A stretch of DNA of 34,897 nucleotides, from the IMG/VR virus record IMGVR_UViG_3300012667_000098, positions 1 through 34,897 of that record. The stretch is one strand, 5' to 3'. Made by a program: the position numbers and the translations under genes. Origin of the DNA: a virus. Taxonomy: Duplodnaviria > Caudoviricetes. Below are positions 1,398 through 15,465 of the stretch, in pieces (position 1 is the first letter of the stretch; each line of letters opens with the position of its first letter). The notes beneath the pieces were generated by a model. The model did no database searches and had not been told where the DNA came from. It was given only the letters and a program-made list of their open reading frames with translations.

Positions 1398-3175
1398 CAT
1401 TAAAAATAAAAGAACTAACAGTAAAAAACTTTATGAGTGTGGGCAACCAGACTCAGGGCGTTAACTTTGCTCAAGAAAACTTAACACTAGTACTTGGTGA
1501 GAACTTGGATCAAGGCGGTGACGACAGTGGCTCACGCAACGGTACTGGTAAAACTACTATTGTAAATGCTTTGAGTTTTGCTCTGTACGGCAACGCTCTT
1601 ACTAACATTAAGAAAGATAACCTAATCAACAAAATCAATAACAAGAACATGTTGGTTACGCTGTCGTTTGAAAAGAACGGTGTTGAATATCGCATCGAGC
1701 GGGGACGCAAGCCTACGCTAATGAAGTTTTATGTCAATGACGAAGAGCAAGGCGCAGAAGAAAGCGATGACGCACAAGGTGATATGCGTGAAACCCAGAA
1801 GGACTTAGATGAACTGCTGGGTATGAGTCACGACATGTTCAAGCACATTGTTGCACTTAACACTTATACAGAACCGTTCTTATCTATGAAGAGCGGAGAA
1901 CAGCGTGTAATCATTGAACAGCTACTTGGCATTACTTTGCTAAGTGAAAAAGCAGAAACTCTTAAAGAGCTTATCCGTCAAACTAAAGATGCTATTATAC
2001 AAGAAAGCGCAGACATTGAAGCGGCTAAGAAATCTAACGATAAAATTCAACTAAGCGTAGACAGTTTAATTACTAGACAAAATGCTTGGAACACTCAGCA
2101 TGATAACGATTTAGAAAAGATCGGTCGTGCTATTATTGAGTTAGAAAGCGTAGATATTGAAGCAGAGCTTTCAGCACATGCTACTTTAAAAACTTATTTA
2201 GAGCAGGCAGCTAAACTAAAGAGCCTGAACAAAGAGAAAGCAACGCTAGAGAGCGCGACAGCGCAAGCAGAGCGTAGCGTAAAGAAATACGCTAGCGAGC
2301 TTGCTGCCTTAGATGGTAAGAAGTGCCACGCTTGTGAGCAGGACTTGCATGATCACAAACATGAAGAACTAACTGCTACAGCTACTAAGCACCTTACAGA
2401 AGCACAGAATTACTTAGATAAAGTTAACAAAGACTTAGATAAGATTCAAACAGAAGTAACTGCTATTGGCGAACTAACTACTCGTCCTAACACTTACTAC
2501 GACACTGTTGAAGAAGCACTCAAGCATCAAAACAACTTGAAGACTTTGGAAACTAACTTGACAATCAAAGCAGGTGAAACTGATCCCTATCAAGAACAGA
2601 TCGACGAGCTACGCAATACTGCCATGCAGGAAATCAACTGGGATAAAGTTAATGAGCTTAACGCTCTTAAGGATCACCAAGAGTTCTTGCTTAAACTTCT
2701 AACAAGTAAAGACAGCTTTATCCGTAAGAAGATTATCGATCAGAACCTAGCATACTTGAATAACCGATTAACATATTATCTCGACAAGATGGGCTTGCCG
2801 CATACCGTTACATTCCAGAATGACTTGAATGTAGAAATTATGCAACTAGGACAAGACTTGGACTTTGATAACTTGTCGCGTGGTGAACGCAATCGTTTGA
2901 TCTTGTCCTTGAGCTGGGCATTCCGTGATGTATGGGAAAGTTTGTATCAAAGCATTAACCTGTTGTTCATTGACGAATTGATTGACAACGGTTTAGATGC
3001 TAGTGGTGTAGAAGGTGCTTTGGGCGTACTTAAAAAGATTGCCCGTGAGCGTAAGAAGAATGTATTCTTAATCTCGCACAAAGACGAACTGATCGGTCGT
3101 GTTAACAATGTACTTAAAGTTGTTAAAGAAAACGGCTTTACATCATATGCAAATGATCTAGAGGTTACAGAATGA
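1394..3175 (+). CDS. gp46: Recombination endonuclease ATPase subunit, Rad50/SbcC-like (T4 gp46-like)
   Basis: Walker A GSRNGTGKTT, long coiled coil with central CHAC zinc hook, ABC signature LSRGE, Walker B LLFIDE and H-loop ISH. It overlaps the gp47 stop (ATGA). Confidence 0.93.
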   Translation: MTLKIKELTVKNFMSVGNQTQGVNFAQENLTLVLGENLDQGGDDSGSRNGTGKTTIVNALSFALYGNALTNIKKDNLINKINNKNMLVTLSFEKNGVEYRIERGRKPTLMKFYVNDEEQGAEESDDAQGDMRETQKDLDELLGMSHDMFKHIVALNTYTEPFLSMKSGEQRVIIEQLLGITLLSEKAETLKELIRQTKDAIIQESADIEAAKKSNDKIQLSVDSLITRQNAWNTQHDNDLEKIGRAIIELESVDIEAELSAHATLKTYLEQAAKLKSLNKEKATLESATAQAERSVKKYASELAALDGKKCHACEQDLHDHKHEELTATATKHLTEAQNYLDKVNKDLDKIQTEVTAIGELTTRPNTYYDTVEEALKHQNNLKTLETNLTIKAGETDPYQEQIDELRNTAMQEINWDKVNELNALKDHQEFLLKLLTSKDSFIRKKIIDQNLAYLNNRLTYYLDKMGLPHTVTFQNDLNVEIMQLGQDLDFDNLSRGERNRLILSLSWAFRDVWESLYQSINLLFIDELIDNGLDASGVEGALGVLKKIARERKKNVFLISHKDELIGRVNNVLKVVKENGFTSYANDLEVTE

Positions 3176-3617: not shown

Positions 3618-4043
3618 ATGTCATGGACTTATCAGAATCAACTCGTAGAAACATTACCTGAAGATTGTGTTGGGTTTGTGTACATTATCACAAATATTAT
3701 CTCTGGCAGAAAATACATAGGCAAAAAGCTCGCCAAATTCTCAAAGACTACAACTAAAACTGTAACCTTAAAGAATGGCACAAAGAAGAAAAAGAAGATT
3801 CGTAGCAAAGTCGACAGTGACTGGCGCGAGTACTACGGAAGTAGTCCAAATCTTCAAAAAGACATAGACACACTAGGCACAGAAAACTTCACAAGAGAAA
3901 TCCTATATTACTGCAACTCTAAGGCGCAATGCTCTTATATCGAGGCAAGAGAACAATTTTCCCGCAAAGTATTAGAATCAGACGACTATTACAACGGACA
4001 CATTCAAGTTCGTGTACATGGGTCACACATATTAAAATCTTAG
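3618..4043 (+). CDS. Minimal GIY-YIG endonuclease (catalytic domain only)
   Basis: GFVYIITN...GRKYIGKK, YYGSS, FTREIL, the conserved Glu (YIEAREQF) and YYNG. It carries a lysine-rich insert and has no C-terminal DNA-binding repeats. Confidence 0.85.
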   Translation: MSWTYQNQLVETLPEDCVGFVYIITNIISGRKYIGKKLAKFSKTTTKTVTLKNGTKKKKKIRSKVDSDWREYYGSSPNLQKDIDTLGTENFTREILYYCNSKAQCSYIEAREQFSRKVLESDDYYNGHIQVRVHGSHILKS

Positions 4044-4346
4044 GCTAACAATACAGTAAGGGCTCGCACCGGCTAAAATCGGGTGCCGAACAGTTGAAAC
4101 CTGGACATCGTGTCGCAGGGATCCGCAGACTTGCCGCTGTAAGCAAGCACTTAATCACTATCCTTAACAGGACGACGATCGCTTAACACCTGCGGTTTGA
4201 TTATTTGAAGAGAGTTAAAAATAGGGAAAAAGAGGGGATAAGAACCCCAGGTTTACTAGTGTGTTAGCGTATGTTAGTAAACTGCCGTTGAATAAAGTCT
4301 TTGCTCGTGGTACCGGTCAACCGCCACTGTAACGCAATAACGCTAA

Positions 4347-4435
4347 GTGACAAAAGTGCAACTCAGATAATGTCCATTTTTGTTTTTTCTTTGCCCGGCC
4401 TGGGCAAAGTGTGACTGAACAATCTAGATAATATC
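4347..4435 (+). repeat. Imperfect direct repeat GTGAC-N(4-7)-CAA-N3-AGATAATRTC, 2 copies
   Basis: Copies at 4347-4374 and 4411-4435, with cores 61 bp apart. They flank a T-tract and the hairpin CTTTGCCC/GGGCAAAG (4389-4409). Confidence 0.55.
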
Positions 4436-4502
4436 TTTAACTGCTTCGCAGCAAATACATCATATAAGAAATAAAGAATAGCTTGAGCGATAGCGATAAG
4501 CT

Positions 4503-4523
4503 GATGAACTTTAGTTCATCTTT
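4503..4523 (+). terminator. Perfect inverted repeat followed by TTT; possible terminator or 3' end of the structured RNA
   Basis: GATGAACT-TT-AGTTCATC-TTT. The U-tail is short. Confidence 0.4.
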
Positions 4524-4531
4524 AAGTGTAG

Positions 4532-4538
4532 ATAAATA
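4532..4538 (+). promoter_or_regulatory. T4-type late promoter (ATAAATA)
   Basis: Matches the TATAAATA core, followed by an AGGA RBS and ATG 4556. Confidence 0.7.
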
Positions 4539-4555
4539 TTGCATAGGATAAGAAC

Positions 4556-5623
4556 ATGAAGATATATGAAATAATCTCGGAAAATAAACAAGTAGATGAA
4601 GGAATAGTTAGCAATGTAGTTAACTGGGCTGGCGGAAAAATAGCTAGTTCTGACATTACTAAGAAAGCAGTAGCTGATCTTGCTGCCAAATATGCTGAAC
4701 GAGTTATGGCACATCAGCGAGCTGGAAAGGGGAAGAAGTTTGTCTCTACACAGTTTATAAAAAATAATGCCCCTAAAGAGGCTAAACGAGAATTATTATC
4801 TGATCCTAAGTATATTGCGTTGATCCAAAAAGAAGGCGACAAGATTATGAGAAATTCTAACCTGTCGGCTATTGCAGGCAAAGTTGGATTGTCAACTCTT
4901 GCAACTGGATCTAAGTGGGATATTACTAAAGCAGTTGGTAGTAGATTAGTAAAGCTCTATTCAAGCTGGCAGATTATTGGCATGTTCAGAGACTATAATT
5001 CAAATGTTAACGCATGGGATGCAGAACTACAGAAACAAGTAGCCGCTGGTAAAATTACACAAGAGCAATATCAAGCCCAACTTGCTCATATTCGTAAAAC
5101 TGAAATGGGATTACTGGTTACTAAAGTAGGTGCAGGCCTACTTGGCAGTGCTATCGTTCGAGGATCAGTTGCGCCAATTGCAGGTTTGTTTAAACTAATT
5201 CCTCTAACTGCTCCGATCGGATCTGTTATCTCTGGTCTAGGTGCCGCAGGTAGTGCGTATCTATATACTAAATTAAATTCTAAAGAAGGTAGCGAAGCAG
5301 TTGCTAGTATTATGGTTGGCAATGCGTTAGGCGATGCAGCCACTTCTGCTATAGGTGGTACAGTAACTAATGCAATGGATTGGATAACTGGTACTGCTAA
5401 AGAAGCTGCCGAAGCAGACAGACAACCAGCTCAAGGCGGGCAAGCCGCTAGCCAAACCCTAGTTAATGCACCTGGGCAACAACCAGCTAAACCTGCTGCT
5501 CAAACTACAACTGCTCCTACAGCACCAACAATGCCCGGTAATAATACAACTGCTAAAGCAGATATGTATACTCCTGCAGGTTATAGTAGAGATGCCGCGG
5601 GTAATTTAATCTACGGTGATTAA
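4556..5623 (+). CDS. Putative internal head / ejected virion protein with hydrophobic Gly/Ala-rich helices
   Basis: Late promoter upstream. The N-terminus MKIYEIISE resembles the T4 capsid-targeting sequence (MKTYQEFIAE). There is a long hydrophobic stretch and a Pro/Gln/Thr-rich tail. Confidence 0.5.
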   Translation: MKIYEIISENKQVDEGIVSNVVNWAGGKIASSDITKKAVADLAAKYAERVMAHQRAGKGKKFVSTQFIKNNAPKEAKRELLSDPKYIALIQKEGDKIMRNSNLSAIAGKVGLSTLATGSKWDITKAVGSRLVKLYSSWQIIGMFRDYNSNVNAWDAELQKQVAAGKITQEQYQAQLAHIRKTEMGLLVTKVGAGLLGSAIVRGSVAPIAGLFKLIPLTAPIGSVISGLGAAGSAYLYTKLNSKEGSEAVASIMVGNALGDAATSAIGGTVTNAMDWITGTAKEAAEADRQPAQGGQAASQTLVNAPGQQPAKPAAQTTTAPTAPTMPGNNTTAKADMYTPAGYSRDAAGNLIYGD

Positions 5624-5859
5624 AACCACGGTAGTTGAGTTTCTTTAGTAGTTTCTAAGTTATCTTCAATTACCGCATACATTGCATCGCGGTCTTCGCT
5701 AGAATAAAAATGTAAGAGTTCGTGCATAGTTACACCACCACGCATGAACCAGCTAATTCTAGCTAGCTCTTTTTTAAACCCTTTAATTTGTTCATCTAGC
5801 CCAACTAGATACTCTTCGATCTGTTCGTTAGATAATTTAGTTAGGCGCTGGCGAAAAAA
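5620..5859 (-). CDS. -1 frame extension of the hub/chaperone gene (not in ORF track)
   Basis: 79 sense codons FFRQRLTKLSNEQIEEYL...ISWFMRGG...DNLETTKETQLPWF*. The frame fills the gap exactly to the convergent stop at 5620-5623 and is entered at slippery T TTT TTC. Confidence 0.7.
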   Translation of the reverse strand, partial: FFRQRLTKLSNEQIEEYLVGLDEQIKGFKKELARISWFMRGGVTMHELLHFYSSEDRDAMYAVIEDNLETTKETQLPWF

Positions 5860-6668
5860 CTTGCATTGTCCATTTCAATAGTGATACTAGATTGATGGTT
5901 GCATTCAGGACATTCAACAGGGTGTGTAGGACTTTCCCATTCGGCTCTTACTTTAGCCAAGTGTTCTTTGATAGCATCAAAAATAACTTTATCACAGTTT
6001 TCTAACCACTCATTGATATAAGTTCTTTCAGTTACCACGGTATTTCCTACTTCAACACTTTCAATGCTAATAGACAGTGCTTCGTTTTGAACTAGGGCAA
6101 TGTCTTTGAATAATGCATTCATAGTTTCTGCTCGTTCTTTATTATCTTCAATCTTATCTGCTTGTCTAATTCGTTGTTGCAGTTGTGCATTCTTAATTGA
6201 AAAGTCAGTGATCTGTCTATAGTTCAACGGCTGTAGTTTAACAACTAAATCCTTTAATACAATTTTACTGTCATACTTGCAATTAGTATAATGGTCAATT
6301 AGTTTAGATAATTCCAATGTGTAGTCGTTAACTGTTTTGCACCCCGGGCAAACATGTTCCACTTCCATTAAGTTACCAAATGTAGCGATACGGATAGCAG
6401 TGAGAATTAAGTCAACATCTAAGTTACTAACATCCCATGCGTTTTTAATTGCTGGACAGCAACTTTCGATAACTTTAACTGTGGTCTCGCCTGAATATAA
6501 TGCATCTGGAGTTTTAATTAGAATCTCGTCCATACCAGTCATTCCGTAAACAGGCATGTTTTCCACAGACCCTTGCAGTGTACCAGGCTGATTGAATACA
6601 CCTTTTGAGGGTAAACTAATGTAGATCTTAGGTTGTCTAAAGAACTGTTGTAATGGGTTTTGTGACAT
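5841..6668 (-). CDS. Baseplate hub assembly protein / tail chaperone (T4 gp26/gp51-like)
   Basis: N-terminal YISLPSKG, MTGMDEILIK, DVDLILTAIRIAT and two CPxC motifs. It is divergent from the tape-measure-like gene and has a GGAG RBS. Confidence 0.75.
   Translation of the reverse strand: MSQNPLQQFFRQPKIYISLPSKGVFNQPGTLQGSVENMPVYGMTGMDEILIKTPDALYSGETTVKVIESCCPAIKNAWDVSNLDVDLILTAIRIATFGNLMEVEHVCPGCKTVNDYTLELSKLIDHYTNCKYDSKIVLKDLVVKLQPLNYRQITDFSIKNAQLQQRIRQADKIEDNKERAETMNALFKDIALVQNEALSISIESVEVGNTVVTERTYINEWLENCDKVIFDAIKEHLAKVRAEWESPTHPVECPECNHQSSITIEMDNASFFASA
5853..5859 (-). other. Putative -1 ribosomal frameshift slippery heptamer T TTT TTC
   Basis: In-frame X XXY YYZ (AGT TTT TTC GCC), three sense codons before the TAA of 5841..6668. 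Confidence 0.65.
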
Positions 6669-14462: not shown

Positions 14463-14520
14463 GATTCACACAGGGTGAATTTTATGCGGAAATCCAACCG
14501 CGTATGGCCTAGAACGCCAT
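14463..14520 (+). promoter_or_regulatory. Structured 5' leader with three tandem hairpins
   Basis: GATTCAC/GTGAATT, TATGCGG/CCGCGTA and ATGGC/GCCAT lie between the promoter and the AAGGAG RBS. Confidence 0.55.
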
Positions 14521-14541
14521 CTTTCTTAAGGAGAAAATAAA

Positions 14542-15465
14542 ATGGGACGTCCTTTAAATAAAAAATATTTTGGTAACCGCAACATCGGTTCTGCAAGTAC
14601 GGCAGCAGATAATGCTATCGGTGGCGGAGCAGTTGCTAGCGTTACATTAGATGCATTAGGTGCATATACAACTCGCCCAACAATTACATTTGCTGTACCA
14701 ACAATTCCAGGCGGTGTTCGTGCTACTGGTACAATTACTTCTGAAGTAGTAACCGCCGCAGTATCAAATGGTGTTACAGGTGAAGGTTACACAGTTGGTG
14801 ATTTAGTTACATTTGACGGTATTGATGGGGTAATTGGTTATGTTGCTACCGTTGGTAGTGGTGTTCAAGAAATCCAAAGCATTACATTTACACAAGCAGG
14901 TACAAGCCGTGGTACATTTACAACATTGCCAGCTGACCTTACTGATGTAGCAGTTATTGGTGGAACAGGTACATTAAGTACTGTTAACATTTCCTTCCGT
15001 GCTAAAGCAGTTGTAATTACAGAAGCAGGTTCTGGTTATGTAGCCGCACCTGAGCCAACATTTACACAATCTGTAACTGCTGATTCAGTTAACATGTTAG
15101 TTGACAGCACAACAGTTGGTACAGTTGGCAATCAAGAAAATGCAGTTCGTATGACAGCATACTTAACAGGCGGTTCAGCAACTGAAGTTGATATCATTCG
15201 CCAAGTTTCAACTAACCGTTACAAAGTAACAGACGGTACTCGTACTGGTATTGTTGCTCTTCAAACAACTGAAGCAAACGCAGCCGGTGAAGGTAGTATT
15301 CTTGCTACTGACAGCGATGCTGGTACTTACTATGTTACTAAGTTAACAGCTCACAAAGCAACATTAACTCGTGGAACAGGTACACAGTTTGCAACAGGCC
15401 AAGCTATCCAATGGACATTTGGCGCAGCTACTGAAGGTGCAACTGTACAACTTTCTAACGCTTAA
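14542..15465 (+). CDS. Virion structural protein (possible capsid decoration/vertex protein)
   Basis: Thr/Gly/Ala/Val-rich and beta-type. It has its own promoter, RBS and downstream hairpin, directly after the major capsid gene. Confidence 0.55.
   Translation: MGRPLNKKYFGNRNIGSASTAADNAIGGGAVASVTLDALGAYTTRPTITFAVPTIPGGVRATGTITSEVVTAAVSNGVTGEGYTVGDLVTFDGIDGVIGYVATVGSGVQEIQSITFTQAGTSRGTFTTLPADLTDVAVIGGTGTLSTVNISFRAKAVVITEAGSGYVAAPEPTFTQSVTADSVNMLVDSTTVGTVGNQENAVRMTAYLTGGSATEVDIIRQVSTNRYKVTDGTRTGIVALQTTEANAAGEGSILATDSDAGTYYVTKLTAHKATLTRGTGTQFATGQAIQWTFGAATEGATVQLSNA

Follow-up and report, generated by a model that had tools for sequence, protein, structure and literature searches.

In ColE1, a G-run in the upstream part of RNA II base-pairs, close to the origin, with a C-run on the template. 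In this plasmid a long folded transcript forms an R-loop and primes, with a DNA stem-loop site nearby (PMC5935869). Phage T4 is described as having at least five origins, of which oriF is primed from an R-loop and three lie near strand switches; its R-loops arise at a T-rich unwinding element and show no sequence specificity, and the origins have no motif in common (PMC3016281). A third point of reference is the RNA motif Polynucleobacter-1, which a table in Weinberg et al. (2010, PMC2864571) lists without function, as a probable RNA and a probable cis-regulator. No function or longer form of it was found in the literature, taken without supplements S1, S3 and S7 of that paper, and the motif is not named in the passages of PMC10690425 and PMC13282480 examined.

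The window analysed here, a stretch of 34,897 nucleotides, is a fragment of a T4-like phage in which a late sigma factor, gp47, gp46 and two small genes are followed by a GIY-YIG gene, and in which baseplate hub, portal, protease and major capsid genes lie 3' of a gap at 4044-4555. At 512 nt this gap is indeed the largest non-coding one in the window (the next-largest measures 217 nt), and the gene order fits the claim of the first-pass annotation that it marks the boundary of the replication and structural modules. Polynucleobacter-1 (RF01718) matches 4061-4206 over its full model, 1-141 (cmscan, 88 bits, E 1e-17, gathering score 37), and is the sole Rfam match in the gap: GOLLD, ROOL, HEARO, ARRPOF, RNase P, group I and II introns and ribozymes gave no match at gathering score in 4044-4555, nor did Rfam return RNAI. 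ARAGORN found no tRNA or tmRNA genes in the window. A group I intron, RNase P and an HDV-like RNA were also considered by eye and dropped, there being no Rfam match and no room for a P4-P6 domain. The description of the RNA as new thus fails for its first third; the strong cmscan match is confined to 4061-4206, and we found no publication on the part beyond it. The element spans 4053 to about 4435; against the 141 positions of the Polynucleobacter-1 model, which ends at 4206, it measures some 380 nt, to which a tail of hairpins is added, and it includes three more knots as well as the twin repeats.

Two relatives that have this module too, G001 and G002, are 345-347 kb genomes that are 99-100% complete, and the closest cultured capsid proteins (66-72%) are those of jumbo phages of the Phosso, PA5oct, GAP32 and PBECO4 groups. 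Eighty loci with the GIY-YIG protein were collected, and 72 have at least 450 nt past its stop codon. Among these 72, 50 align across the whole gap, 5 carry the element about 0.8-1 kb further downstream, and two variants (11 and 6 loci) have a different 5' part and the same 3' domain. At six loci (L005, L013, L014, L016, L042 and L074) unrelated genes lie between the nuclease gene and the element, as at a cargo site. Elsewhere in the window, the Rfam cis-regulatory RNA freshwater-2 (RF02980, 72.8 bits) occupies 14464-14544 on the plus strand, directly 3' of the major capsid gene, and also occurs once in the 140 kb of G001 scanned. The baseplate-hub (gp26-like) gene lies at 5624-6668 on the minus strand, and the adjoining 217-nt gap appears to hold a short minus-strand continuation.

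Single-sequence folding of the element is unremarkable, being no better than shuffles on either strand (z -1.38 for plus, -1.91 for minus), with z ranging from +0.57 to -1.54 for four sub-regions on both strands. Covariation, in contrast, is strong. The 158 window-type copies were reduced to 116 at <90% identity (mean identity 65%), and mutual information among these homologues picks complementary pairs from 4053 through 4520. For 94 named pairs in 60 homologues, 91.7% of cells pair, as against 76.3% in shuffled and 36-42% in slid controls, and two-sided change occurs in 77 of the 94 pairs as against 54 in shuffles, these controls being generous in that the structure was derived from the same sequences that were tested. 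Thus the earlier proposal of a large plus-strand structured element with pseudoknots is backed by covariation, and its stems sit at the positions it gave them.

In the 5' domain (4053..4206, plus strand; cmscan and covariation), Polynucleobacter-1 is joined by a pseudoknot, 4053-4056/4137-4140, and by the pairs 4062-4063/4072-4073, with covariation z of 21.9 for 4053-4140 and 15.9 for 4062-4073. Both had been missed by the first-pass annotation, as had the crossing core helices and the twin repeats described below. Homologues uphold P1 (4066-4086), P2, P3 and the three-way junction at 4152-4203, and the pair 4161-4173 covaries as U-C/C-U. After an A-rich linker comes a variable hairpin (4234..4248, plus strand), also confirmed by covariation, and then a G-U-rich stem at 4251..4282 (plus strand) whose loop, 4264-4270, pairs with 4340-4346. 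All 12 pairs of this stem and all 7 of the pseudoknot show two-sided change. The stem had been credited with 14 bp and five G-U pairs; 12 bp are supported, and the higher count depends on two terminal pairs, of which one is incompatible with the pseudoknot. The argument for plus-strand polarity survives, with G-U at 15% versus A-C at 0.8% in 4251-4282, and 27% versus 0 in 4177-4197. This excess of G-U over A-C is seen in the 5' and middle stems and is absent from the last hairpin.

The conserved core (4285..4346, plus strand), with its invariant linkers and the pseudoknot partner 4340-4346, is itself a knot, in which helix 4287-4291/4317-4321 crosses helix 4301-4310/4324-4337; the top covariation pairs here reach z of 35, 28, 23 and 21. 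Two of the helices originally drawn in this region, TTGC/GCAA and GTGG/CCAC, are found in the homologues. The outermost, CGTTG/TAACG, is not, having 13% A-C, and 4289-4291 pair with 4317-4319 instead. Nor do the homologues keep the alternative pairing of 4102-4108 with 4370-4376, which is Watson-Crick in 32% and mismatched in 39%. Between the repeats, the hairpin at 4389..4409 (plus strand) is well supported (covariation z 17.5, 15.4 and 14.6). A three-way covariation of 4294 with 4392:4406 suggests a base triple, or a switch between core and hairpin by alternative pairing.

The patch at 4441-4520, which had been read as three terminal hairpins of the RNA, has a different character. A mini-hairpin at 4441..4451 reads C(TTC)G on the plus and C(GAA)G on the minus strand, and C(GAA)G is found in 63 of 150 distinct tails. 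The second, at 4480..4502, is a GA-GC(GNNA)GC-GA hairpin with tandem G-A and is likely a single-stranded DNA structure. The last, at 4503..4520, is borne out as a hairpin and has almost no G-T pairs; of the 150 tails, 73 have C(GNA)G as its loop and 38 have C(GNNA)G, while the window itself has C(TTTA)G. We take C(GAA)G, C(GNA)G and C(GNNA)G to be the loops of very stable DNA mini-hairpins. From the sequences of these loops, the hairpins are more likely DNA structures than parts of the RNA.

Several of the top covariation signals are not complementarities but identities at a constant offset of 61. They arise from two interrupted direct repeats that enclose the 4389-4409 hairpin: R1 (4359..4374, plus strand), which is ACTC followed by a 7-nt variable core, and R2 (4420..4435, plus strand), which is ATCT followed by the same core. 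A pattern that fixed only ACTC..A and ATCT..A, leaving the core free, matched in 176 of 198 loci (144 distinct). R1 equals R2 at the four variable core positions in 142, 144, 144 and 144 of the 144 distinct loci, where chance would give fractions of 0.50, 0.80, 0.55 and 0.69. Fourteen of the 22 loci missed by the pattern were inspected, of which 11 match, 2 are diverged and 1 lacks R1; 7 of the other 8 have short flanks. The copy without R1 (L087, ~1530-1545, plus strand) also lacks the hairpin and keeps the core and R2, owing to a deletion or an assembly error. Ten different repeat cores exist, with 45 core changes on a tree of 106 of the 116 sequences built from the 5' region, on which position +4 changes 32 times per repeat and 33 times jointly, counts that phage recombination may inflate. 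The repeat 11-mer occurs once and twice in two 345-kb genomes. In a 327-kb phage contig (G014) with four copies of the element, one copy shows a C-to-T change in R1 and R2 alike, so that the matching of R1 to R2 is per locus.

What the repeat pairs with is narrowed by the observation that no complementary third site occurs at a fixed place between -1200 and +600 nt in 107 loci; the partner must therefore be either an antisense transcript or the opposite strand of the DNA. The simplest partner would be the DNA template strand, with R1 as the RNA strand of an RNA-DNA hybrid and R2 as the putative hybrid site and RNA 3' end. At +4 and +11 to +13, mismatches of the kind tolerated by an R1 RNA on the template of R2 stand to those of the opposite arrangement at 2:0, 120:1, 11:4 and 11:8, a lean that favours the former. 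Positions -2 and -1 lean the opposite way (5:25 and 1:3), and most mismatches there are of neither kind. The invariant CTC/TCT interruption is left without an explanation.

The element is not confined to lake phages closely related to the window. BLASTN of the window element against cultured phages gave no match, and profile and covariance models of the window family miss the cultured-phage copies (best E 0.3). GAP32, slurp01, Phosso and Paride nonetheless have, at the syntenic place, a gap with no or almost no ORFs. That of slurp01 recurs four times in slurp01 and five times in GAP32, on the same strand and 53-111 kb apart, and TATAAT precedes all nine copies. They agree with the window element in the order of helices, in a covarying pseudoknot and in having repeats on either side of a hairpin. 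A descriptor of the core combined with a pairing test matches the window and 9 of 9 slurp01 and GAP32 copies, misses PA5oct, Phosso and the bacterial islands described below, and has a background of 2 matches in 446 kb of unrelated DNA, with no extra match in 692 kb of phage DNA. The window element and these copies are probably related; the link falls short of proof, since the models miss the cultured copies and it rests on the descriptor. In PA5oct, the RNA-seq-annotated ncRNA004 is reported at 0.08% of phage reads early and 0.02% late (PMC7318152). It matches the syntenic gap at 83% across about 125 nt, its annotated 3' end is the last base of a repeat that lies behind a hairpin, and by eye it appears to be kin to the window element. 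G001 and G002 have one copy each, while none of the four in G014 lies beside a GIY-YIG nuclease and one lies behind RNase HI. Phosso has a 1-kb ORF-free, hairpin-rich gap between resolvase and RNase HI (L452, 3760-4773), which our models do not match, and Vibrio phage 2.275.O has a P-loop NTPase gene (L451, 7999-9699, plus strand) where related jumbo phages have the non-coding element.

Copies also occur in bacteria. A scan of bacterial genomes gave about 20 true copies, mainly in Polynucleobacter, among 120 of 121 matching stretches, most of which match by chance. Island copies match RF01718 at 70-97 bits. Five islands integrated at tRNA genes of Polynucleobacter and relatives were mapped (L362, 7110-17971; L364, 4384-13945; L366, 3765-17566; L367, 3394-17333; L368, 760-18713); they measure 9.5-18 kb, and all five are bordered by tRNA-end repeats, have an integrase-like gene and carry repeated TGTCG-TTT-AAA-CGAC palindromes. 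Their repeat cores differ from those of the phages, yet match within each locus (22 of 25 identical, 2 G/A and 1 other). Island cargo comprises an integrase, a small tyrosine recombinase, a clamp-loader-like ATPase and DUF6641. As in phage satellites, there are an integrase, att repeats and a small size, and no capsid or transfer family was recognised among the island proteins scanned, a subset of the ORFs. It is possible that these islands are satellites of the jumbo phages; the island-type pattern and DUF6641 gave no matches in viral contigs.

Of 63 DUF6641 loci with enough flank, 39 match the element, 5 of them partly, and about 20 hold a gene of 150-175 aa in its place. In these RNA-less islands (L423, 673-1128, minus strand, and some 20 related loci) the slot protein is modelled as a small beta-barrel (pLDDT 87). 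It has no Pfam, PHROG or Atlas match, and the model no Foldseek match at E 0.001, the best Z being 6.3 (rmsd 3.0, 83 aligned) to generic beta-barrels. The model has no initiator match, so that the label of initiator is unsupported for this gene, and a swap for a Rep gene is likewise unconfirmed.

Evidence for expression comes from eight RNA-library runs, available as contigs only. Some contigs bridge the GIY-YIG gene and the element, cover drops beyond about 4430, one contig stopping at 4426; contigs give no ends, strand or level, and with DNA carry-over possible they hint at transcription of the element in the lake phage. No sigma-70 promoter was found ahead of the element in the window, from which we infer read-through from the gp46 operon.

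Taken together, these sequences make a cis R-loop of some function fairly likely. That the element is, more specifically, a candidate replication origin primed by an R-loop RNA, similar in its working to ColE1 or T4, we would put at about an even chance. This reading draws on a self-matching, promoter-led cis element that is kept in jumbo phages, where it is sometimes evenly spread, and in small islands of helper type. RNA polymerase would read through from the gp46 operon or, in other genomes, start from a dedicated promoter, and the fold would keep R1 single-stranded beside the core. Behind the polymerase, R1 would pair with the template at R2, about 55 nt downstream, through 3 bp, the fixed CTC/TCT interruption, 7 bp, a G-T wobble and 2 bp, giving a lasting RNA-DNA hybrid. 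The transcript end, or a cut by RNase H near R2, would then supply a 3' OH for leading-strand synthesis, and the hairpins at 4441-4520 may extrude on the opened strands and aid the loading of helicase and primase. The islands, as satellites, would bear such an origin and borrow the replisome of their helper phage. More tentatively, with the balance somewhat against it, the element could represent a widespread and unrecognised class of origins, in which a triple-pseudoknotted RNA with a built-in, freely varying guide invades its own gene, and which is evenly repeated in jumbo phages and captured by satellite islands; the core may cut or position the primer end.

Other observations speak for an origin. 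In G001 and G002 some 6-8 kb separate the element from the main strand switch, RNase HI genes adjoin it in L095, beside one G014 copy and at the Phosso gap, no recognised initiator family was found among the island proteins scanned, and ncRNA004 of PA5oct peaks early. Several observations count against an origin. No RNase HI was matched in G001 and G002 in a search for that type of RNase H only, slurp01 and GAP32 having it, and several island genes without known function could be an initiator. In G001 and G002, GC and AT skew track the coding strand, with no inflection at the element. The lean at -2 and -1, the fixed interruption, the slot protein without an initiator match, the failure of the models to reach the cultured copies, the nuclease gene upstream in most lake-phage loci and the loss of R1 in L087 weigh against it as well. 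Separately, a template RNA of a retron, DRT or DGR was rejected, as RVT_1 was found in none of four genomes, and in neither of the two near-complete ones; a divergent reverse transcriptase could escape this search.

The repeat evidence would fit any cis R-loop, so the same self-pairing could instead make a cis-acting entry site for packaging, for recombination or, as a late-transcription enhancer, for sliding-clamp loading, rather than a primer. An ATAAATA at 4532..4538 (plus strand), late-promoter-like by what we take to be the consensus, follows the element, and 4 of 5 copies of this motif in the window precede other late genes. Such a role would also suit the clamp-loader-like ATPase of the islands, the small genes that islands often carry and whose MKIxEI start recurs in phage genes downstream of the element, and the structure-specific nuclease (GIY-YIG, RusA-like or EndoVII) that is the element's usual neighbour. 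However, the copies in cultured phages stand behind a TATAAT promoter of host type, ncRNA004 is highest early, and the gene after the element has the opposite orientation in many loci; in the window this is a plus-strand gene of 355 aa that starts MKIYEI (4556..5623) and varies among homologues. We consider an entry site of this kind unlikely.

Quite unlikely, in our estimation, is a free RNA acting in trans in the manner of GOLLD or ROOL, with the repeats as a symmetric RNA motif, a dimer contact or twin sites for protein binding or processing. The ornate fold with its G-U bias, the presence of the element in RNA libraries and the annotation of ncRNA004 as an RNA would all agree with it. Against it, the repeats maintain identity, not complementarity, at positions free to vary across ten cores and 45 changes, and matching is per copy within one genome, both of which are hard to reconcile with a single protein or with antiparallel RNA pairing; in addition, DNA-type hairpins follow the element.

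The neighbouring nuclease (SegE-like, 141 aa, 3618..4043, plus strand; PF19835, E 6e-33) raises a further alternative, in which the RNA is its scaffold and guide, R1 being the guide and ATCT a motif read by the protein, with a nick at R2 and R1 spared. All 72 gene-first loci with at least 450 nt downstream carry the element within about 1.4 kb, and the gene is upstream in 68 of 71 RNA-first lake-phage loci with at least 800 nt upstream. The protein consists of the catalytic domain alone, its basic insertion is longer than that of RNA-less cultured relatives (no solved relative was found by sequence), and the fixed CTC/TCT difference resembles self-protection. On the other hand, gp46 likewise precedes the element in 63 of 66 loci, so that synteny accounts for the linkage. 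In the three RNA-first loci without the GIY-YIG gene its place is taken by RNase HI, a RusA-like nuclease or a TATAAT promoter, the first two thus able to occupy the slot; a search for GIY-YIG in these contigs, which are 7-25% complete, was empty. Conversely, all five of the GIY-YIG-bearing cultured phages examined lack the element. The gene was not found in the complete genomes of slurp01 and GAP32, in the island loci or beside the four G014 copies, and bacterial copies mostly have no GIY-YIG nearby. Thus RNA and nuclease do not co-occur obligately as in an OMEGA-like RNP; the GIY-YIG gene is a usual neighbour and dispensable for the element, and we regard its guidance by the RNA as very unlikely.

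Most improbable of all is that the whole element folds as single-stranded DNA and serves, without any RNA intermediate, as an origin of the single-strand or nick-and-relocate kind: GNNA loops other than GNRA also occur in the 4389-4409 hairpin, and the repeats could let a DNA 3' end move from R1 to R2, but G-U of 15-27% in two stems, the covarying U-C/C-U pair, A-rich linkers, promoters ahead of stand-alone copies and the RNA-seq annotation in PA5oct all speak for RNA.

If the R-loop origin proves correct, it would give a function to an RNA motif listed without one since 2010, would supply candidate origins for RaK2/GAP32/PBECO4-like and lake jumbo phages, for which we found none in the literature, and would reveal a sequence-programmed way to make an R-loop in cis. 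The related copies lie in cultured E. coli and Cronobacter jumbo phages, where the repeat pair is suited to a test by compensatory mutation.

Short internal guides are familiar from the bridge RNA of IS110 and from OMEGA, in which a segment of RNA equals the top strand of a DNA site and pairs with the bottom strand. Unlike these, the element has neither a recombinase nor a RuvC or HNH partner, and its only match is its own DNA. Our best reading is that the element would work like ColE1 and T4 oriF while belonging to neither family. Its likeness to ColE1 is that a long folded transcript would form an R-loop and prime, with DNA stem-loops close by. It differs in that the match lies about 55 nt away and consists of a variable 7-mer with a fixed interruption, that no antisense RNA I was seen, and that jumbo phages and islands carry it, at times as 4-5 copies. 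With oriF and oriG of T4 it would share several origins per genome, a promoter with a persistent R-loop and a place near strand switches, in a host phage that is itself T4-like; unlike the T4 origins, it keeps a conserved fold and a sequence match.
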